A stretch of DNA of 64,000 nt from an uncultured Rhodoblastus sp. (GTDB lineage: Bacteria > Pseudomonadota > Alphaproteobacteria > Rhizobiales > Beijerinckiaceae), in NCBI GenBank assembly GCA_964425315.1, contig CAYRNB010000002.1:2973-66972 (forward strand), written 5' to 3'. Of this stretch, positions 10,111 through 64,000 are shown piece after piece (position 1 is the stretch's first letter; every line of letters begins with the position of its first letter). Position numbers and translations under genes: made by a program. The notes under the pieces are model-generated. The model was given only the letters and a program-made list of their open reading frames with translations. It searched no databases and was not told where the DNA came from.

Positions 10111-10134
10111 CCGCATTGGGGCGAACGAATAGCC

Positions 10135-10710
10135 ATGGTCAAGCTCAACAAAATTTACACGAAGACCGGCGACGACGGCTCAACCGGCCTCGCCAACGGG
10201 GAAAGGCGGCGCAAATCCGATCCGCGGGTCGAAGCCTATGGCGATATCGACGAGGCCAATTCCGCCATTGGCCTGGCGCGCCTCTCCACCGGCGCTCTCC
10301 CCGAACTCGACTCCATGCTGGCGCGCATCCAGAATGACCTGTTCGACCTCGGCGCCGACCTTGCGACGCCGCCTTCCGACAAACCGCTCGGTTACGAGCC
10401 TTTGCGCATTGTCGCCGCGCAGGTGACGCGCTTGGAGGAGGAAATCGACCGGCTCAATGCGCGCCTTGCGCCTTTGCGTTCTTTCGTTCTGCCCGGCGGC
10501 TCGCCAGCGGCGGCCGGCCTGCATCTCGCCCGCGCCGTCGCGCGCCGCGCTGAAAGGCGAATGGTCGCCTTGGCGGCGGAAGGAGAGTCCGTCAGCGCGC
10601 CGGCGCTGCAATTCATCAACCGTCTCTCGGATTTCCTCTTCGTCGCCGCGCGCATCGCCAATAATGACGGCGAAGACGATGTTTTATGGCGGCCTGGTCA
10701 GAATCGCTGA
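10135..10710 (+). CDS. pduO: ATP:cob(I)alamin adenosyltransferase, PduO type
   Basis: KIYTKTGDDG, RVEAYGDIDEAN, RAVARRAER and NRLSDFLF motifs. Confidence 0.95.
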   Translation: MVKLNKIYTKTGDDGSTGLANGERRRKSDPRVEAYGDIDEANSAIGLARLSTGALPELDSMLARIQNDLFDLGADLATPPSDKPLGYEPLRIVAAQVTRLEEEIDRLNARLAPLRSFVLPGGSPAAAGLHLARAVARRAERRMVALAAEGESVSAPALQFINRLSDFLFVAARIANNDGEDDVLWRPGQNR

Positions 10711-13848: not shown

Positions 13849-14025
13849 ATGAAGGCCGCGTCGGTTCCGCCTCGGCGCTCAAGGGCGCTGGTCGTGGAAA
13901 CGGCGGCTCCGGCGGCCGCGCAAAGCGAATCGCTCCTTTCGTCCTTATTTCGCCGCCAGGCCGATGAACGGCTGATCGAGCAAAGTCAGCAAGTGGAAGA
14001 GACGATATTGCGGGAGGCGGCATGA
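13849..14025 (+). CDS. 58-aa hypothetical protein translationally coupled to HNH
   Basis: GGGAGA RBS 5-6 nt before the ATG. Its TGA overlaps the HNH ATG (ATGA), and it ends in REAA. No recognised domain. Confidence 0.55.
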   Translation: MKAASVPPRRSRALVVETAAPAAAQSESLLSSLFRRQADERLIEQSQQVEETILREAA

Positions 14026-14588
14026 ACGCTTCCGTCGCCAATCTGCGTACCCTCGTGCTGAATGCCGACATGCAGCCCGTTTCCTGGGCGCCTCTGTCGA
14101 TTTGGAGCTGGCAGGACGCTTTGGTGGCCTTGCTCAAGGGGCGCGTCTATCCGATCGCGAATTATGACGACGTTGTGGTGCGCTCCGCCAACCAATCCTT
14201 TGAAGTGCCTTCCGTCGTCGCGCTCAAGGCCTATCATCGGCGTAAAACCTTGGCCTTCACTCGATATCATGTTTTTTTGCGCGACGAATTCACTTGCCAA
14301 TATTGCGGTCAAAGGGCGCTGGCCAAGGATTTGACCTTCGACCACGTCACACCGCGTTCGAAGGGCGGCCATACCGTTTGGACCAATATCGTCGCCTGCT
14401 GCCAACGCGATAATCTGTTGAAGGCGGACAAGACGCCAAGGGAAGCAGGACTGAAATTGCGCCGCCTACCATTCGAGCCGTCCCCCTACCAGCTCGACAA
14501 GGTCGCCCGACGCATTCCGCAGGCCAATAGCGAACTCCACAAGACCTGGAACGATTTCCTTTATTGGGATACGGAACTTGAGCGCTGA
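14022..14588 (+). CDS. HNH endonuclease (McrA-like, LVLNA-N-terminal family)
   Basis: LVLNADMQPVS, VFLRDEFTCQYCG, LTFDHVTPRSKGGHTVWTNIVACCQRDNLLKADKTP and C-terminal FLYWDTELE. GGAGG RBS at 14013. Confidence 0.93.
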   Translation: MNASVANLRTLVLNADMQPVSWAPLSIWSWQDALVALLKGRVYPIANYDDVVVRSANQSFEVPSVVALKAYHRRKTLAFTRYHVFLRDEFTCQYCGQRALAKDLTFDHVTPRSKGGHTVWTNIVACCQRDNLLKADKTPREAGLKLRRLPFEPSPYQLDKVARRIPQANSELHKTWNDFLYWDTELER

Positions 14589-34208: not shown

Positions 34209-35293
34209 GACGACCGATCCTTATCGCCATCCACACGCGGCGATGACGCCTCAATCGTCCGGCGCGTCTGGGTTTCATAGGCTCCAACGATCCGGCGCAC
34301 GAGGTCATGGCGAACCACGTCTTCTTCCCCTAAAGTGACGTGGCCGACGCCTTCCAATCCTGTCAGCAAAGCTATGGCCTCGTTCAAGCCCGGCCTTTGC
34401 CCCAGAGGAAGATCGGTTTGGGACGGGTCGCCTGTAACAACCATACGCGATCCTTCGCCCAACCGGGTAAGGAACATTTTCATCTGCATCGAGGTGGCGT
34501 TTTGCGCTTCATCCAGCAAGATGCAAGCATTGGACAAAGTCCGTCCTCGCATGAAAGCCAAAGGCGCGACCTCGATCATGCCGGTCTGCATCCCGCGCTC
34601 GAGCATCCGAGGATCCATGAAATCCTGTAAGGCGTCGTAAATCGGGCGCAGGTAGGGATCGACCTTTTCGCGCATGTCGCCGGGAAGAAATCCGAGCCTT
34701 TCGCCGGCTTCGACTGCCGGCCGCGACAGGATCAACCGCTCGACCGCGCCCTGTTCCAGCAGTGAGACCGCATGTCCGACGGCCAGCCACGTCTTGCCTG
34801 TGCCGGCGGGGCCGGCGGCGAAAACCAGCTCGTAACGCTTCAACTCGCGGATATAGAGATCTTGCGCTGCGGTGCGGGCTCGTACGACGCCCTTCTTGCG
34901 TGTCGAAATCTGCTCAAAATTCGACCTCGGCGAATAGGCCTCTCTGGGGAACAGATTGCCCTGGAAGGCGCATTCCTGGATCGCGCCGTCAACGTCGCCC
35001 AAAGTGGCGGGCTCCCCCGCCCTTGCTCGCCCGCACAAAATTTGCAGCACCCGCCGCGCATGGCCGGTTGCCTCGGGCGCCCCTTTGATGACGACATGAT
35101 TGCCATTCGCGTTCAACACGACATTGAGACGCCGCTCGATCCGCGCAAGATTCTGGTCGTAATGACCGAAAACCAAAGAGGCCGTGCGATTGTCGTCCAA
35201 AGCCAACGTCAAGTCCGTGGTTGATGCTTCCGGATTTTGGTCGGCCTTGCCTGGGTCGGAGTTCGGCGCTCCATCCGTGAGAGCCATGCTCAA
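34205..35293 (-). CDS. PhoH-family ATPase
   Basis: [38 protein letters not shown] and GDPSQTDL motifs. Confidence 0.96.
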
Positions 35294-36738
35294 TTCGTCT
35301 CCCGCATCGGCGCGTCTAGCGAAAACTCATCCGTAAGGCGGCCAAAAAGCGAATTGGAGCCGCATTCGACGATTTTCACCGGAGCGACGCGTCCCATCAG
35401 CTCTTCCGGCGCCTCGACCTGCACGGCCTGAAGATACGGAGATTTGCCGGCGACTTGACCGGCGCGCCGGCCGGCTTTTTCGAACAGCACGTCAACCTCG
35501 CGTCCGACCATGGCGGCGTTGAAGGCTCGACGCTGCGCCTCAAGCGTCTCCTGAAGTCGCGCCAGTCTCTCAATCTTGACCTCTTCCGGCGTTTGCGCGG
35601 CAAGCTCAGCGCCTGGCGTTCCCGGTCGCGGCGAATATTTGAAATAAAAGGACGATGCGAACCCGGCCTCTTTCGCCAAAGACAAGGTGGCGGCGAAATC
35701 CGCCTCGGTCTCGCCGGGAAAGCCGACGATGAAATCGGAGGAAAGGGCGATATCGGGCCGCGCCCGGCGGATTCGTTCGACCAGGCGCAAATAGTCTGCG
35801 GCTTTGTGTCGCCTGTTCATCGCTTCGAGGATCCGATCCGATCCCGACTGCACCGGCAAATGCAGGAACGGCATCAAGACGGGCAATTCGGCATGAGCGC
35901 GGATGAGGTCATCCGTCATGTCGTTTGGGTGGCTGGTCGTGTAACGCAATCGCTCCAACCCCGGAACTTCGGCAAGACGATAAAGCAGTTGCGTCAGCGA
36001 CACTTCCTCGTCCTGTTCGTTCCGACCGCGATAGGCATTGACGTTCTGCCCCAACAAAGTGATTTCGCGCACGCCGGCGCGGGCGAGGATCGCCGCTTCG
36101 TCAAGGATTTTTTCGACCGTGCGCGAGTTTTCGGCGCCGCGCGTATAGGGGACGACACAAAAGGAACAGAACTTGTCGCAGCCCTCCTGGACCGTGAGGA
36201 AGGCGCTTGCGCCACGCTCGCGGATCTTTTCTTCGGACGGCCGAGCGAGGTGGTCGAACTTGTCTTCGATCGGAAATTCCGTGTCGATGACCGGTCCATG
36301 ATCCGATACCCGCAACATTCGCGGCAAATGGTGATAGCTTTGAGGGCCAACGACGAGATCGACCGCGCGTTGCTTGCGCAGGATTTCCGCGCCTTCGGCT
36401 TGAGCCACACATCCGGCGACAGCGATTTTCGTCGCCAGTCCGGCGGCTTTCCGCGCCTTTTTCAGCAAGCGCGCCTTACCCAGTTCGGAAAAAACCTTTT
36501 CCGAAGCTTTTTCACGGATGTGGCACGTGTTGAGGACGATCAGATCGGCCTCTTCCATAACTTTCGTTTCCGCAAAGCCTTCTGGCGCCAATACGTCCGC
36601 CATCCGCGCCGCGTCATAGACATTCATCTGGCAGCCGTAGGACTTGACGAAGAGCTTCTTCCCAGCGGTCGGCGCCGACGCTTCAACCCTGGTCCTATTC
36701 GCGGTTTCCGGCCAGCGGGAATTCGGATCGCTTTTCAA
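35290..36738 (-). CDS. miaB: tRNA-2-methylthio-N6-dimethylallyladenosine synthase
   Basis: [17 protein letters not shown], radical-SAM GCDKFCSFC and a TRAM domain. Confidence 0.97.
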
Positions 36739-56419: not shown

Positions 56420-58402
56420 TCAGGCGTTGCAGCCACGATCCTCAACAATGCGGACGATATCGGCCATGATGGCGTTGATCTCGTAATCTTTGGGCGTATA
56501 GACCGCCGCAACCCCTTCAGACAGAAGCAGTTTTTCGTCTTCAGGCGGAATGATGCCGCCGACGACGACGGGGACATCCGACATACCTTGCACCTTCATG
56601 CGAGCCAAAACATCGCGCACCAATGGCACGTGCGAACCCGAGAGAATAGACAGACCGATGACGTGAACGCCTTCTTCCAGCGCAGTATTGACGATTTCCG
56701 CCGGGGTCAGGCGGATGCCTTCATAAACTACCTCCATGCCGGCGTCGCGAGCGCGCACCGCAATCTGTTCGGCGCCGTTGGAGTGACCGTCGAGACCCGG
56801 CTTTCCGACCAGGAATTTGACCCGCCGGCCGATTTTCCTAGAAACTCGCTCGACCTCCGAGCGCACGGGATCAAGTGACCCGCCAGCCTGTCGGGCGCTG
56901 ACCCCGACGCCAGTTGGAGCGCGAAACTCGCCGAAAACCTCGCGCAGTGTTCGGCCCCATTCACCAGTCGTGACGCCGGCTTTGGCCGCAGCGATCGACG
57001 GCTCCATAATATTGCGTTCCTCCTGAGCCGCGGCGCGCAATTCCGCCAAGGCTTTCTCGACCGCCTTTCCATTGCGTTTCGCACGCCATGACTTAAGACG
57101 CTCAATTTGCTCGTCTTCGACACGTTCGGGCACCACAAGGATAGCCCCTTCGCCCGTCGTCAAAGGCGATGGTTCGCTTTCAACGAATTTATTGACGCCG
57201 ACGACGATTTGCTCGCCCGCCTCAATGGCTTCGAGACGCCGCGAGTTCGATTCGACTAATTTCGACTTCAAATATCCGCTTTCGACCGCAGCCACAGCGC
57301 CCCCCATGGCGTCGATGGCGGCAAGCTCGGCGAGCGCCTCTTTCTTGAGCTCATTGACTTTTTTCGTCAGTTCCACGCTGCCGTCGAACAAATCCCCATA
57401 TTCGAGCAGGTCGGTCTCGTAAGCGAGGATTTGCTGCAGGCGCAGCGACCATTGCTGGTCGAACGGACGGGGGAGACCCAAAGCTTCGTTCCAGGCCGGT
57501 AATTGCACGGCGCGGGCGCGCGCCTTTTTCGATAGCACTACCGCCAAGGTCTCGATCAATATGCGATAAACGTTATTCTCCGGCTGTTGTTCGGTAAGCC
57601 CAAGCGAATTGACCTGAACGCCATAGCGGAAACGCCGGTATTTCTGGTCCGTGACGCCATAGCGATCACGGGTGAGCTCGTCCCACAATTCGGTAAAGGC
57701 GCGCACTTTGGCGAGTTCGGTGACAAATCGCATGCCGGCGTTGAGAAAAAAGGAAATCCGGCCGACAACCTCGCCGAAGTCGGCCTCCGAAACTTGGCCG
57801 GATTTTTTCACCGTATCGAGAATGGCGACGGCGGTCGCCAAAGCATAGGATAATTCCTGAACCGGCGTCGCCCCCGCCTCCTGCAAATGATAAGAGCAGA
57901 CATTCATCGGGTTCCATTTCGGAACTTCGCGGGTAGTGAATAAAATCACGTCCTTCGTCAGTCGCAACGACGGGCCGGGCGGAAACACATAAGTGCCGCG
58001 CGAAAGATATTCCTTGATAATGTCATTCTGCGTCGTTCCCTGCAGCGCCATGCGCGGCGCGCCTTGGGCGTCGGCGGCGGCTATATAGAGCGAGAGGAGC
58101 CACGGCGCCGTGGCGTTGATCGTCATAGATGTGTTCATCTGCGCGATCGGAATACCGTCGAACAAAGCTTTCATATCGCCCAGATGCGATATCGGCACGC
58201 CGACTTTGCCCACTTCGCCGCGGGAAAGGGGATGATCGGAATCATAGCCGGTCTGGGTCGGCAAATCGAAGGCGATTGAGAGCCCTGTCTGACCCTTCGC
58301 GAGATTGCTGCGATATAGTTTGTTGGATTCCGTCGCGGTTGAATGGCCCGCATAGGTGCGGAAAATCCAGGGCTTATCGCGTTGGGAAGCTGTCTTCGTC
58401 AT
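56420..58402 (-). CDS. ecm: Ethylmalonyl-CoA mutase (MeaA), B12-dependent
   Basis: KPWIFRTYAGHS, LSIAFDLPTQTGYD, QVNSLGLTEQQPENN and B12-binding KPGLDGHSNG motifs. Divergent from ccr. Confidence 0.94.
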   Translation of the reverse strand: MTKTASQRDKPWIFRTYAGHSTATESNKLYRSNLAKGQTGLSIAFDLPTQTGYDSDHPLSRGEVGKVGVPISHLGDMKALFDGIPIAQMNTSMTINATAPWLLSLYIAAADAQGAPRMALQGTTQNDIIKEYLSRGTYVFPPGPSLRLTKDVILFTTREVPKWNPMNVCSYHLQEAGATPVQELSYALATAVAILDTVKKSGQVSEADFGEVVGRISFFLNAGMRFVTELAKVRAFTELWDELTRDRYGVTDQKYRRFRYGVQVNSLGLTEQQPENNVYRILIETLAVVLSKKARARAVQLPAWNEALGLPRPFDQQWSLRLQQILAYETDLLEYGDLFDGSVELTKKVNELKKEALAELAAIDAMGGAVAAVESGYLKSKLVESNSRRLEAIEAGEQIVVGVNKFVESEPSPLTTGEGAILVVPERVEDEQIERLKSWRAKRNGKAVEKALAELRAAAQEERNIMEPSIAAAKAGVTTGEWGRTLREVFGEFRAPTGVGVSARQAGGSLDPVRSEVERVSRKIGRRVKFLVGKPGLDGHSNGAEQIAVRARDAGMEVVYEGIRLTPAEIVNTALEEGVHVIGLSILSGSHVPLVRDVLARMKVQGMSDVPVVVGGIIPPEDEKLLLSEGVAAVYTPKDYEINAIMADIVRIVEDRGCNA

Positions 58403-58483
58403 CGGGAGCCTCACTCTTAACCAGCGCGGGGGACGGCTGAGCTTATGGTCTGCGCTTTCGCTCGACCATTGCTTTGCCTCACT

Positions 58484-58690
58484 TTGCCGCACAGCACAAT
58501 CGGCTATCAGGCGGCAGCCTCCCGGCGCAGATTAGCTGCTTGGAGCCAATAACTCTATGATTTCGCCCAGGGTTGGGCGAAGGATCGCCTGGCTGCCATG
58601 ACGGGAACAAAACAGGCGCCAACTTTAGCATGAAATAAAAAATCTCGGCGTTGCTCGCCAAGACGCAATAACATGTATATTGCCGCACAG
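58484..58690 (+). repeat. 11-bp direct repeat TTGCCGCACAG in the ecm/ccr divergent spacer
   Basis: Copies at 58484-58494 and 58680-58690, one near each gene. Confidence 0.55.
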
Positions 58691-58818
58691 AGACGTGAAA
58701 CCAACCCTTCCGCTTTCGTTTAGTCTCCCCCACGCAGTTTTTTGTGTGGCGCCGCACGAGGCGGATCAGCTATTTCACTTTTTCATGTCGCATTCTCGTT
58801 TCGGGCTATCAAGAAGCA

Positions 58819-60144
58819 ATGGTCCAGCAACGACAGGAGTCAGCGTTGAACACTCAATCGCCAGTGGCGACCGGCGCTAATGCCGGAAAGGAGCCGGTCC
58901 TGAAGGATTTGTATGATATCGGCGAGATTCCGCCCTTGGGCCATGTCCCCAAGAACATGCATGCTTGGGTCATCCGCAGGGAAAGGCACGGTCCACCGGA
59001 ATCGGCGATGCAGCTTGAAGTCGTTCCGACCTGGGAGCTGGACAGTCATGACGTCCTGGTCTTGGTCATGGCCGCCGGCGTCAACTACAATGGCGTCTGG
59101 GCTGCTCTTGGCGAGCCCATTTCCGTTCTGGACGTCCATAAGCAGCCTTTCCATATAGCCGGTTCCGACGCTGCAGGCATCGTTTGGGCCGTCGGTTCCA
59201 AGGTCAAGCGCTGGAAAGTCGGCGACGAGGTTGTCGTCCATTGTAATCAGGACGACGGCGACGATGAGGAATGCAACGGCGGCGATCCTATGTTCTCTGC
59301 GTCCCAGCGGATTTGGGGATACGAGACCCCGGATGGCTCGTTCGCGCAATTCTGCCGCGTGCAGGACCGCCAGCTGATGGTGCGTCCCAAACATCTGACG
59401 TGGGAAGAAAGCGCTTGTTACACACTGACCCTCGCCACTGCCTATCGCATGTTATTCGGTCATGAGCCGCACCGCTTGAAGCCGGGGGACAATGTGCTCG
59501 TCTGGGGCGCTTCCGGCGGCCTCGGCGTTTTTGGCGTTCAGCTCATTGCCGCGGCTGGCGCCAATGCGATTGGAATCATCTCGGACGAATCCAAGCGCGA
59601 TTATGTCCTTTCCCTGGGGGCGAAAGGCGTCATCAATCGCAAGGAATTCAAGTGCTGGGGTCAGCTTCCCAAGGTCAATTCGCCCGAATATGCGGAATGG
59701 CTCAAGGAATCCCGCAAATTTGGCAAAGCGATCTGGGATATTACCGGGAAGAAGGACGTCGACATCGTTTTCGAACACCCCGGAGAAGCGACGTTTCCCG
59801 TCTCGACCCTCGTGGTGAAGCGCGGCGGCATGGTCGTATTTTGCGCCGGCACCACCGGCTTCAACCTAACTTTCGACGCCCGCTATGTCTGGATGCGTCA
59901 AAAACGCATCCAAGGATCGCATTTCGCCCATTTAAAACAAGCGGCGGCGGCCAATAATTTCGTCGTCGACCGGCGCGTCGACCCTTGCATGTCGGAAGTT
60001 TTTCCCTGGACGAAAATTCCTCTGGCCCACACCAAAATGTGGAAAAACCAGCACGCGCCCGGAAATATGGCTGTACTCGTCAACGCCACGCAAACCGGTC
60101 TGCGCACTTTGGAGGATGTGATCGACGCAGGAAAAACCCGCTGA
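58819..60144 (+). CDS. ccr: Crotonyl-CoA carboxylase/reductase
   Basis: KDLYDIGEIPPLGHVPKNM, MAAGVNYNGVW, IWGYETPDGSFAQF and WMRQKRIQGSHFA motifs. Exact start is uncertain. Confidence 0.96.
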   Translation: MVQQRQESALNTQSPVATGANAGKEPVLKDLYDIGEIPPLGHVPKNMHAWVIRRERHGPPESAMQLEVVPTWELDSHDVLVLVMAAGVNYNGVWAALGEPISVLDVHKQPFHIAGSDAAGIVWAVGSKVKRWKVGDEVVVHCNQDDGDDEECNGGDPMFSASQRIWGYETPDGSFAQFCRVQDRQLMVRPKHLTWEESACYTLTLATAYRMLFGHEPHRLKPGDNVLVWGASGGLGVFGVQLIAAAGANAIGIISDESKRDYVLSLGAKGVINRKEFKCWGQLPKVNSPEYAEWLKESRKFGKAIWDITGKKDVDIVFEHPGEATFPVSTLVVKRGGMVVFCAGTTGFNLTFDARYVWMRQKRIQGSHFAHLKQAAAANNFVVDRRVDPCMSEVFPWTKIPLAHTKMWKNQHAPGNMAVLVNATQTGLRTLEDVIDAGKTR

Positions 60145-60807: not shown

Positions 60808-62628
60808 ATGAAACTTCGCAATATCGCCATCATCGCCCACGTCGACCACGGTAAGACCACGTTGGTCGATCAATTGCTTCGTCAATCCGGCGCGTTTCGT
60901 GAAAACCAGCGTGTCGCCGAGCGCGTAATGGATTCCAACGATCTCGAAAAAGAGCGCGGCATCACCATCCTTGCGAAAGCCACGTCGATCGTCTGGAAAG
61001 ACACGCGCATTAATATTGTCGATACGCCCGGCCATGCCGATTTCGGCGGAGAGGTCGAACGCATTCTGTCGATGGTCGATGGCGCCATTGTTTTGGTCGA
61101 TGCTGCGGAAGGTCCTATGCCGCAGACAAAATTTGTTGTTGGCAAGGCGCTGAAAATCGGTCTCAAACCGATCGTCGCCATCAATAAGGTCGACAAGCCC
61201 GATGCACGGCCAAGCCAGGTGATCAACGAAGTTTTCGATCTCTTCGCTGCTTTGGATGCGGATGACGAACAACTCGACTTCCCCATTCTCTACGGATCGT
61301 CAAAACAGGGATGGATGGCGGAAAGCCCGGACGTCCCGGCCAAGGACATGTCGGCCTTGTTCGATCTTGTTCTCGATCATGTCCCAGAGCCCCAGCTCGA
61401 AAGCGGCGGCTTCCGCATGCTGGGCACTTTGCTCGAATCCAATCCGTATCTCGGCCGCATCATTACCGGCCGCATTTTTTCTGGCTCGGTTAGGCCCAAC
61501 CAAACAGTAAAGGTTCTCGACCGGTCGGGCGCTGTCATTGAACAGGGACGCATTTCGAAGATTCTTGCATTTCGCGGCATTGAACGTCAGCCGATCGACG
61601 CGGCCGAGGCAGGCGACATTGTCGCTATTGCCGGTCTCGAAAAATTCAATGTCGCCGACACGCTCTGTGCGCCCGACGTCACCGAGCCCCTACAGGCCCA
61701 ACCTATCGATCCGCCAACTCTTTCGATGACTTTCCTCGTGAATGATTCACCGCTCGCCGGCACCGAAGGCGACAAAGTCACCAGCCGCGTGATCCGCGAT
61801 CGTCTCTACCGGGAAGCGGAGGGGAACGTCGCTCTCAAGATCGAAGACTCGCCGGGATCAGATTCCTACATAGTCTCGGGTCGCGGCGAGTTGCAGCTGG
61901 CGATACTGATTGAAACCATGCGCCGCGAGGGCTTCGAGCTTGGCATTTCGCGACCTCGGGTTGTCTTCCAAAAGGGTGAAGACGGATCGCGGCTCGAACC
62001 GATCGAAGAGGTTATGATCGACGTCGATGAAGAATATTCTGGCGTCGTCGTCCAAAAAATGTCCGAGCGAAAGGCGGAAATGATGGAGATGCGACCATCC
62101 GGCGGCAACCGCCTCCGTCTCGTCTTCCACGCGCCAACGCGCGGCCTTATCGGCTATCAAGGAGAATTGCTTACCGATACGCGCGGCACGGCGATCTTGA
62201 ACCGCGTATTCCACAATTATGCGCCTTACAAAGGCGACATTGCGCGCCGACGCAACGGGGTCTTAATCTCCACTGACGCCGGCGAAGCGGTGGCTTACGC
62301 CATGTGGAACCTCGAAGATCGCGGTCCGATGATGATCGAACCGGGATGGAAGGTTTACCCCGGCATGATCGTTGGCCAACACACGCGCGAAAATGACCTG
62401 GAAGTCAATGTGCTTAAAGGCAAGAAGTTGACCAACGTTCGCGCCGCAGGCAAGGATGAGGCCGTCAAACTGACGCCGCCGATCCGCATGACGCTGGAAA
62501 AATCGCTTGCCTTTATTGAGGACGACGAACTCGTTGAAGTCACGCCTAAATCGATACGGTTGCGCAAAGCCATTCTTGACCCGAACGATCGAAAGCGCGC
62601 GGAGAGGGCCAGAGAACAGGTTGCCTAG
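60808..62628 (+). CDS. typA: Translational GTPase TypA/BipA
   Basis: [30 protein letters not shown] and [10 protein letters not shown] motifs. Confidence 0.98.
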
Positions 62629-62710
62629 ACTCCGATCTCTATCATTTCGGCCCGATTTGAGGTTCTGTCTACCTGGCCAGCACGACGGAATTACGGAGTT
62701 TTACGCCTAG

Positions 62711-64000
62711 ATGGAACGGACGCTCGATCGATTTGAAATTGGCCAAGACGCCCGACGATTAAGGATAGATACTCTATCTAGGTTACGGTGGTTAGCATTA
62801 TTAGGACAGTTACTTACGGTACTTATCACCGTATTTATTCTACGGTTTTCTCTACCACTAGAAATTTGTTTTTTTGTTATAGGTATTTCAGCGTTATTGA
62901 ATTTTATTATTCAGTTACGAGCACCGAAGAGTTTGCGTTTGACGGATAAGCAAGCGACGGCCCTGTTAGCTTTCGATGTTTTACAACTTGCTGCGTTGCT
63001 TTATTTTACAGGAGGACTCGAAAATCCTTTTGCCATGTTATTTCTTGCACCGGTGACTATCGCGGCAATGTCCCTTCCTATACCACAAATCCTATTAATT
63101 GGCGTTCTGGCGGCGCTTGCAGCCAGCATCCTTGGCGTCGAACATTGGCCATTGCCTTGGTATCATGGGCAAACCGTCAGCCTTCCTCTGCTTTACAGAT
63201 TTGGATTATGGACGGCGATTCTCGTCGCGAGCGCTTTTATTGGGGCTTATGCCTCGCGAGTGGCCCGCGAAGCGCGCGCCTTAAGCCAGGCATTGACTGC
63301 GACGGAATTGGCTTTGGAAAGGGAGAATCACCTTTCGCAGCTCGATGGACTTGCCGCCGCGGCGGCGCACGAGCTTGGAACGCCGCTCGCCACGATCGCG
63401 CTTGTGACGCGCGAGTTGAGCAACGCCGATTTTTCTCCCGAATTTTCAGAGGACCTGACTTTGCTGACTCAGGAGGTCAAACGTTGCCGGGCCATTCTCG
63501 GGCGATTAACGTCGCTTGCAACTGAAGACCAGCAGCCTTTCGGACGAAGTAAACTTAGTGTTTTGCTGGAACAGATTGTCGAGCCCCACAGGCAGCCGTC
63601 TGTGGAAATCCGAATCGATGCAAAAGGCGAAGGCGCCGAACCTCTTCTGACGCAAAACCCTGCGATCATCTACGGCCTTGGCAATTTCATCGAAAATGCC
63701 GTTGATTTTGCTAAAACTTCGACGATCATTGAAGCTCTGTGGTCGGTGGATTCTGTTCGGATCGTCATCCTCGACGATGGTCCAGGCTTTTCGATTGAAG
63801 TCGCGAACAGGATTGGCGATCCTTATGTCACCAGCCGCGCCGACCGTCGCATGAAACGCGACAAACATTCGGGCCTGGGGCTCGGCGTGTTCATTGCTAA
63901 GACTTTGCTGGAACGAACAGGAGCTCATATCAAATTTTCAAACCGTGAAATTGGCGGGGCAAAGATACAGCTAGACTGGGAGCGCCGTCTGTTCGAAAGC
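62711..64000 (+). CDS. regB: RegB/PrrB/ActS redox sensor histidine kinase (3'-truncated; missing from ORF track)
   Basis: Manual translation is open from ATG 62711 to the window end: RRLRIDTLSRLRWLA, quinone-binding GGLENPF, H-box AAHELGTPL, redox Cys VKRCRAIL, N-box GNFIENA, DDGPG and GLGLGVFI. Confidence 0.96.
   Translation, partial: MERTLDRFEIGQDARRLRIDTLSRLRWLALLGQLLTVLITVFILRFSLPLEICFFVIGISALLNFIIQLRAPKSLRLTDKQATALLAFDVLQLAALLYFTGGLENPFAMLFLAPVTIAAMSLPIPQILLIGVLAALAASILGVEHWPLPWYHGQTVSLPLLYRFGLWTAILVASAFIGAYASRVAREARALSQALTATELALERENHLSQLDGLAAAAAHELGTPLATIALVTRELSNADFSPEFSEDLTLLTQEVKRCRAILGRLTSLATEDQQPFGRSKLSVLLEQIVEPHRQPSVEIRIDAKGEGAEPLLTQNPAIIYGLGNFIENAVDFAKTSTIIEALWSVDSVRIVILDDGPGFSIEVANRIGDPYVTSRADRRMKRDKHSGLGLGVFIAKTLLERTGAHIKFSNREIGGAKIQLDWERRLFES

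Follow-up and report, generated by a model that had tools for sequence, protein, structure and literature searches.

In the 64,000 nucleotides of DNA from an uncultured Rhodoblastus sp. analyzed here (the window, meaning the whole stretch), the gene regB, which codes for a sensor histidine kinase of the ActS/PrrB/RegB type, carries an AT-rich block in its 5′ third. This block is real, old, and specific to its lineage. It formed in place, and it has the codon usage of a low-GC genome while the motifs that define RegB are preserved. From its sequence and that of its surroundings, we tentatively propose, with a probability of roughly 0.35, that the block damps the output of RegB relative to that of regA, the gene predicted downstream.

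Extent, authenticity, and age of the block

As background for codon statistics, 45 open reading frames (ORFs) of the window were used, and the background codons number 17,682. The block covers ~340 bp at 33–38% GC in a window of 59.6% GC. The lowest GC content of any 180-nt segment of the window, 0.333, is found at 62755–62934, and the next lowest is 0.461, with a mean of 0.596 and a standard deviation (sd) of 0.048. An earlier note on this DNA had counted 61 G or C among the 180 nucleotides at 62761–62940 (33.9%), a value that we reproduced. The contrast it drew with spot checks of purL and argH was less general, with 62–63% GC found only at that end of the window. For GC content at third codon positions (GC3), the lowest in-frame 54-codon value, 0.22, lies in regB, as compared with a mean of 0.69 (sd 0.077) and a minimum of 0.41 in the background ORFs. 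The earlier count of 12 codons ending in G or C among the 54 codons from 17 to 70 also held, and the probability of so few is 2e-12.

TTA codons are rare in the background, where they number 56 in all, account for 3% of leucine codons, and never exceed three in any 94 codons of an ORF. In codons 17–130 of regB, 12 of the 29 leucine codons are TTA (P(≥12) = 4e-11). They stand at codons 17, 25, 28, 30, 31, 34, 62, 69, 86, 91, 110, and 129; the earlier note had listed 11 of them within codons 17–110, six of these within codons 17–34, and the one at codon 129 is additional. About 22 codons of the block end in TA (NTA codons), and NTA codons make up 2–11% of their respective families in the host. 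The block has two lobes in the part of the gene that codes for the membrane-helix domain, codons 17–70 and 91–130, separated by a near-normal stretch. Besides eight of the TTA codons, the core patch contains CTA, ATA, and GTA codons, and on its left side it is sharply bounded at codon 17. As the drop in composition begins only after codon 16, the translation-initiation region of regB is not AT-enriched. Likewise, GC3 is steady in the upstream gene typA up to its stop codon, and the drop therefore begins in regB. The kinase half is closer to normal, as had been stated, yet its GC3 remains below the background (Table 1). The earlier view of a local anomaly in a RegB that still looks functional was right.

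The protein encoded by this sequence retains the motifs of its family. Both RLRW and GGLENPF, which the earlier note had pointed out, were confirmed in the translation. GGLENPF (residues 101–107, encoded by GGA GGA CTC GAA AAT CCT TTT at 63011–63031) is invariant across an alignment of 15 RegB sequences, and we take this GGXXNPF heptapeptide, located between membrane helices, to be the quinone-binding motif of the Rhodobacter literature. A database protein of 433 aa, P0001, is 100% identical to RegB of the window and matches PF25323 (6TM_PilS-type), PF00512 (HisKA), and PF02518 (HATPase_c). The first of these families and an end-to-end alignment with 14 RegB homologs define an N-terminal multi-helix membrane domain. 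In the kinase half, the H-box AAAAAHELGTPL contains His220 (codon 63368–63370), and an R-C-R sequence contains Cys259 (codon 63485–63487); both residues are invariant in the 15 sequences, and Cys259 is presumably the counterpart of Cys265 of Rhodobacter capsulatus. Homologs at ~70% identity bear the name RegB in their source records, and among relatives with a name, Rhodoblastus and Beijerinckiaceae come closest.

An assembly chimera or a sequencing artefact was rejected, since a separately assembled contig spans the patch with even depth and runs from two other studies contain parts of it. A 989-nt Logan contig of the source salt-marsh metagenome reproduces 62705–63693 with 0 differences at a depth of 21.8, the flanking contigs having depths of 25.5 and 22.5. 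A marine-sediment run from a different study contains 62974–63130 with one difference, and a sediment run contains 62572–62770 exactly. The source run (X1) holds two strain variants, with five differences within 62605–62734 and four within 63664–63776; the 989 nt between these variable stretches, including the whole patch, form a single invariant contig.

The age of the block can be judged from a further run (X5), which contains a near-identical strain and a sister species with 84–86% nucleotide identity over the 7 kb examined. The pieces of the sister regB that correspond to 62921–63026 and 63056–63198 are as AT-rich as those of the window, with ~82–85% identity in the second lobe. The listed changes between window and sister are six from AT to GC and five from GC to AT, and the sister has a TTA codon where the window has TTG. 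Since the sister pieces are AT-rich, at least the second lobe is older than the split of the two species, with no visible reversion. A patch that is hypervariable between strains was rejected as an explanation of the divergent X5 pieces, as these belong to a second organism that is 84–86% identical across the whole 7 kb.

In the block, G+C has been lost generally, from each of the three codon positions, which has left the codon usage of a genome at ~38% GC; TTA has not accumulated specifically. GC contents at the first, second, and third codon positions (GC1, GC2, and GC3) are 0.47, 0.37, and 0.31 in the patch, and about 0.61, 0.43, and 0.6–0.84 in close orthologs. Among 80 orthologs, the share of FYMINK residues (those encoded by AT-rich codons) is highest in the patch peptide (0.246, compared with 0.169 ± 0.020), and its share of GARP residues is the joint lowest. 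Substitutions specific to the RegB of the window, namely L>F, V>I, L>I, G>E/F, R>Q, and V120>M, are likewise directed toward AT. As GC1, GC2, and amino-acid composition are shifted, the change is only partly synonymous: the earlier description of a synonymously recoded 5′ end was right only in part.

We re-encoded the patch peptide with codon frequencies taken from natural regB genes of 37–39% GC. This simulation gave 11.3 ± 2.7 TTA codons, 22.4 ± 3.5 NTA codons, a GC3 of 0.29, and 33 ± 3.7 TA dinucleotides, compared with 12, 22, 0.31, and 36 observed. Third positions of the patch (A.34, C.08, G.23, T.35) also match those of natural low-GC orthologs (A.32–.36, C.10–.11, G.17–.19, T.36–.39), so the apparent depletion of C is not a mutational signature. 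Deaminase-type hypermutation, which produces transitions only, was rejected by the counts at four-fold degenerate sites (A 19, T 18, G 13, C 5), as the A's gained at third positions cannot come from transitions alone. The odds ratio of TpA is 1.17–1.42 in the patch and 0.45 genome-wide, with no excess over codon usage at that GC content, and that of CpG stays host-like at 1.36–1.52.

To place regB of the window among its orthologs, we gathered regB DNA from 79 GTDB species, from two contigs that encode the closest proteins, and from 80 contigs of metagenomes, which yielded 157 usable orthologs, and for each we subtracted the GC3 of codons 131–430 from that of aligned codons 17–130. The difference is −0.26 in the window, and the orthologs have a mean of +0.024 (sd 0.042) and a minimum of −0.056, which places the window at z = −6.8. 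Conservation of the patch among orthologs, a check that the earlier note had proposed, was seen in 0 of the 157, and its position is not conserved. In the closest relatives (73% identity), GC3 of the N-terminal part of regB is 0.78–0.84. Among six close relatives tabulated (loci are designated L plus a number), the segment contains 0–3 TTA codons in L001–L005, with none in L001, and six in L086, a lower-GC member of the clade (locus GC 0.50, N-terminal GC3 0.40) that is a poorer match to the window (0.65 identity) than the GC-rich relatives.

The same comparison bears on whether the block was imported. The five nearest relatives are the same for the patch (0.68–0.73 identity) and for the remaining protein (0.66–0.72), and the offset in identity between patch and rest is 0.032 in the window and 0.029–0.06 in other clade members. 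At second codon positions, identity is 0.83–0.90 in the patch and 0.82–0.88 in the rest. RegB proteins from the lowest-GC loci (37–41% GC) reach 43–44% identity in the patch, and the best match retrieved when only the N-terminal 154 residues were searched has 69% identity. No match to the patch was found in plasmid and phage collections, and no low-GC donor was found in 5.8 billion proteins, GTDB species genomes, JGI metagenomes, or the plasmid and phage collections. The segment identities, the ranking of neighbors, the search with the N-terminus only, and the plasmid and phage searches led us to reject a distant AT-rich donor. Phylogenetic conflict between the N-terminus and the rest, which the earlier note had named as a sign of xenologous replacement, was looked for and not found. 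Synteny around regB is native in comparison with the two closest relatives. Taken from these sequence comparisons, the block appears to have formed in place within a native orthologous regB and not to derive from a distant AT-rich donor.

A crude ORF-based scan for comparable patches covered 557 ORFs of related loci and was followed by a Pfam check. Most of its matches were rejected as artefacts (gene fusions across spacers or starts called too early), and only dnaQ of the two closest relatives remained inside a conserved domain. There, the 5′ half of the gene (L082:8031-8270; L081 ~10120-10400) shows a milder AT shift within the exonuclease domain, with a GC3 of ~0.37 over the first 54 codons and ~0.65 later, a 180-nt GC minimum of 0.31–0.38, and 0 TTA codons (read in L082 only). 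With this, dnaQ provides a second, milder case of low GC at the 5′ end of a conserved gene close to the predicted origin.

Table 1 Features of regB and its upstream region, in window positions
Feature	Position	Strand	Basis or observation
typA/bipA	60808–62628	+	Gene upstream of regB, same strand; GC3 ~0.65, uniform to the stop codon
typA-regB spacer, 82 nt	62629–62710	+	Remodelled relative to 10 close relatives
regB (ActS/PrrB/RegB-type sensor histidine kinase)	62711–64000	+	Translation, homologs, Pfam
Core AT patch, codons 17–70, first two predicted membrane helices	62759–62920	+	GC ~33%, GC3 12/54
Weak hairpin in the patch, inner stem ACCGUA/UACGGU, then UUUUCUCU	62818–62856	+	Fold −9.9 kcal/mol, z = −2.7
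Intermediate stretch, codons 71–90	62921–62980	+	GC3 near normal, 11/20
Second AT lobe, codons 91–130, contains GGLENPF	62981–63100	+	GC3 12/40
Rest of regB (last membrane helices, His220 H-box, Cys259, ATPase domain)	63101–64000	+	GC3 0.57 vs background 0.69

Upstream spacer, sequence elements, and neighborhood

The spacer between typA and regB was compared with L081:3609-3797, L082:1610-1698, and the 200 nt preceding regB in L001–L005, L083, L085, and L086. Ten clade relatives have typA upstream, and each of them keeps a strong intrinsic terminator (GCGGGGCTTCGGCCCCGC plus a T-run, −16.6 kcal/mol) ~40 nt before regB, followed, again in 10 of 10, by a conserved GTATAAG (TATAAG-like) element and an AGGAAAG ribosome-binding site. 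The spacer of the window is without all three. What is left is part of the hairpin's right arm, together with a GGAG 12 nt from the ATG, and no promoter-like site was found in this spacer. With the upstream module lost, regB probably depends on read-through from typA and is probably weak in initiation. In one of the relatives compared (L081:1887-3797), typA has a frameshift near its 3′ end and its coding sequence continues out of frame past the called stop, most likely because of a long-read assembly error.

The start of regB is the ATG at 62711, with an in-frame TAG immediately before it. Of the 433 codons of the gene, 430 fall inside the window, and the gene continues past the end. A Response_reg gene of 196 aa directly follows regB in the two closest relatives; the window itself stops inside regB. 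At RegB codons 174 and 178 (63230–63244), membrane-helix cysteines are substituted in the window (ILVASAFIGAY). Cys174 is present in at least 90% of the 15 aligned sequences, and the second cysteine (FICAY) in most, with FIA in two relatives.

Searches for elements acting at the level of DNA or RNA gave little. The earlier note had proposed such an element in the patch, for instance an unwinding element, an internal promoter, or a nucleation site for a nucleoid protein, and the versions that could be tested from sequence did not survive. No DnaA or CtrA box is present in 62700–63150, promoter-like sites within the patch number 1 against 1.0 expected, and no Rfam family matches the patch. Helical (10.5-bp) phasing of AT dinucleotides gave P = 0.03 at one of five periods, which is not significant once corrected, and repeats in the patch are limited to short pairs at chance level. 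An intragenic terminator was rejected, as the terminator-like hairpin, which is followed by a U-run, is much weaker than a genuine terminator and the three sites found do not differ significantly from the 1.5 ± 1.3 in shuffled sequences. No MucR-like ORF was found when the 64 kb were searched with a query sequence.

A replication origin or DNA-unwinding element in the patch was rejected both for the lack of DnaA and CtrA boxes and for the presence of an origin-like cluster elsewhere in the closest relatives. Their gene order is typA-regB-regA-hemJ-hemE, a spacer, and DUF299-aroE-coaE-dnaQ, and the hemE / DUF299-aroE-coaE-dnaQ neighborhood is typical of alpha-proteobacterial origins. A perfect CtrA box, TTAACGATTTGTTAA, occurs in the hemE-DUF299 spacer (L081:7294-7719, L082:5230-5653) together with a cluster of three DnaA-like boxes. 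On this basis, the chromosomal origin is predicted ~2.3 kb past regB, beyond the window. GC content declines steadily along the window toward this predicted origin, from 0.63 at the purQ/purL/argH end to 0.54–0.57 at the typA/regB end, and GC skew is weakly negative along its whole length (1–64000).

Among other genes of the window, miaB (35290–36738, minus strand) lies 26 kb from regB in an ordinary housekeeping cluster, miaB-phoH-ybeY-corC-lnt, and the sole tRNA gene encodes tRNA-Ala. A crotonyl-CoA carboxylase/reductase gene precedes typA. This gene (plus strand) adjoins a methylmalonyl-CoA-mutase-family gene (minus strand) at 56420–60144, a pair that suggests the ethylmalonyl-CoA pathway and would fit a Rhodoblastus- or Beijerinckiaceae-like organism. 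A 206-aa ORF at 13968–14588 (plus strand) has a weak partial match to a Cas9d model (E = 1.4e-11, 66 residues) and is probably a stand-alone protein with an HNH-type nuclease domain.

Possible roles of the block

In the damping that we propose, the module seen in the relatives (typA terminator, TATAAG-like element, and well-spaced ribosome-binding site) has been lost, which would leave regB to be expressed by read-through from typA, and the block would act as a damper on expression of the sensor kinase. Its ~22 NTA codons would slow decoding, and the poor ribosome-binding site would add to this effect. In addition, AU-rich RNA may decay faster, and AT-rich DNA may attract AT-preferring nucleoid proteins. 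In combination, these effects could keep RegB low relative to regA. Slow decoding seems close to unavoidable, since the NTA codons belong to the rarest classes of the host; of the translational gating by rare codons that had been suggested earlier, it is this generic effect that may survive. It also seems close to unavoidable that a stretch so rich in AT and TpA is of the kind bound by AT-preferring nucleoid proteins (PMC8857273). As the terminator, promoter, and ribosome-binding module is lost as well, damping of RegB relative to regA would be the most coherent reading, and the case for a function comes from the sharp boundary, the persistence in the sister species, and the neighboring loss of upstream control.

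Several points weigh against this proposal. Base composition alone explains every sequence property of the patch, and nothing positively demands selection. Codon rarity and AT-richness are confounded in this genome, and selection on codon speed alone does not predict amino-acid changes toward AT-rich codons. The damper is deduced from two neighboring lineage-specific changes in one lineage, with no independent replicate. The sister species is readable neither in the patch core nor in the spacer, so that sharing was checked for the second lobe only. The status of regB as an outlier was judged on 64 kb of genome, and dnaQ shows its milder shift in two relatives. Finally, the locus was not found in any RNA run.

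The block might instead be a nucleation island for an AT-preferring silencer, in this bacterial order one of the MucR/Ros type, that represses or gates transcription of regB-regA, as intragenic H-NS sites do in proU. With 340 bp at 33–38% GC in a genome of 60% GC and a TpA odds ratio far above the genome-wide one, the block would look like such an island, and its sharp left edge with a gradual decay downstream would fit nucleation followed by spreading. In Sinorhizobium fredii, genes rich in AT, core genes among them, are targets of MucR1, whose recruitment is correlated with TpA steps (PMC8857273). We nevertheless consider a silencer unlikely, as TpA is no higher than codon usage predicts, helical phasing is absent, no mucR was found in the window, and the block is conserved in 0 of 157 orthologs. 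A broader version, in which the island recruits a MucR-type silencer and/or the Rho/RNase machinery and so replaces the lost terminator-promoter module, with regBA, the master redox two-component system, controlled from within the regB reading frame, appears distinctly improbable. An origin or DNA-unwinding element within regB, or an artefact from a chimeric contig, deserves next to no credence: the local composition is extreme and the locus is near the predicted origin region, but the independent contig has even depth, parts of the locus recur in runs from two other studies, DnaA and CtrA boxes are absent from the patch, and the closest relatives have their origin-like cluster between hemE and DUF299.

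Other explanations concern how the block arose or what its TTA codons do. It is possible, though doubtful, that the block is a neutral by-product, with the force that maintains GC (selection or biased gene conversion) locally absent or mutation locally AT-biased, the stretch relaxed to an AT-rich mutational equilibrium, and only the protein under purifying selection. Such an origin would agree with a composition that accounts for all measured properties, with the drift of tolerant sites to amino acids with AT-rich codons, as occurs under genome-wide AT pressure, with the lack of any motif, structure, or ortholog conservation in our searches, and with the shift inside the dnaQ domain. It does not sit well with the normal composition of the adjacent spacer and typA, with the lack of anything comparable elsewhere in the 64 kb, or with the sharing of the block by a sister species of ~85% identity with no visible return to high GC. 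Moreover, no process is known to limit AT bias to ~340 bp that begin abruptly at codon 17. Recombination with the regB of an unsampled low-GC member of the same clade would yield codon usage indistinguishable from that of a genuine low-GC genome and a two-lobed structure like that of mosaic genes, and the clade does include the lower-GC L086. We regard such a mosaic import as rather improbable. Phylogenetic conflict was not found, the protein, GTDB, JGI, plasmid, and phage searches gave no donor, L086 matches worse than the GC-rich relatives, and the CpG odds ratio is host-like. Homologous recombination needs identical stretches, of which versions at 35% and 60% GC would be short, making the event mechanistically unlikely.

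The earlier note had put forward a gating by TTA similar to that of bldA, with a possible dependence on Fe-S or oxygen status through MiaB. In such a gating, RegB synthesis would be limited by tRNA-Leu(UAA) or by MiaA/MiaB modification of tRNAs reading UNN codons, and so coupled to Fe-S or oxygen status. The rarity of TTA in the host, the 12 TTA codons in 114, with six within 18, and the presence of miaB in the window all invite this idea. It now looks very improbable: TTA is no more frequent than local composition gives, codons other than those of leucine and the amino acids themselves are shifted too, close relatives have few TTA codons apart from the six in L086 at 50% GC, and miaB, which has a housekeeping role, is not linked to regB.

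From a biological perspective, if the block is maintained by selection, then control of expression can move from an upstream terminator, promoter, and ribosome-binding module into the composition of a reading frame, and this in a global redox regulator. It would also provide a natural test case for a rare-codon, AU-rich block in a membrane sensor kinase of a GC-rich bacterium. If the block is neutral, 340 bp of fully "foreign" codon usage can arise within a native gene, and composition-based calls of horizontal transfer and regulatory inferences based on TTA may therefore mislead. The regB block is moderately interesting as an experiment of nature on how the composition of a coding sequence may exert control.

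Comparison with known systems

Mosaic genes produced by interspecies recombination are known from the penicillin-binding protein genes of Streptococcus and Neisseria. Like them, regB has an atypical, lobed block in an otherwise native gene; unlike in mosaic genes, the protein phylogeny of the block agrees with that of the rest, and the collections searched gave no donor. The concentration of a rare TTA codon in a regulatory gene of a GC-rich genome recalls bldA control in Streptomyces. There, one or a few TTA codons occur in otherwise GC-rich genes, whereas in regB they are a symptom of a general low-GC block.

Position-specific, conserved clusters of rare codons have been described in coding sequences (PMC5438181). 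As in such clusters and in N-terminal codon ramps, the 5′ third of this gene, which encodes a multi-pass membrane protein, is dense in the rarest synonymous codons of the host, and the protein sequence is kept. However, the position of known functional clusters is conserved across homologs, which the regB block is not in any of the 157 orthologs. The regB block is also longer (~110 codons), spares the first 16 codons, and shifts amino-acid composition.

An H-NS downstream regulatory element lies within the coding sequence of proV in the proU operon. AT-rich genes are also targets of the xenogeneic silencer MucR in alpha-proteobacteria (PMC8857273, PMC9410896). Although the regB block, unlike such targets, was not horizontally acquired and has no TpA content or phasing beyond what codon usage gives, it resembles them in being a few hundred base pairs long, rich in AT and TpA, and situated in the 5′ part of a coding region, and binding of it by such proteins would be expected.

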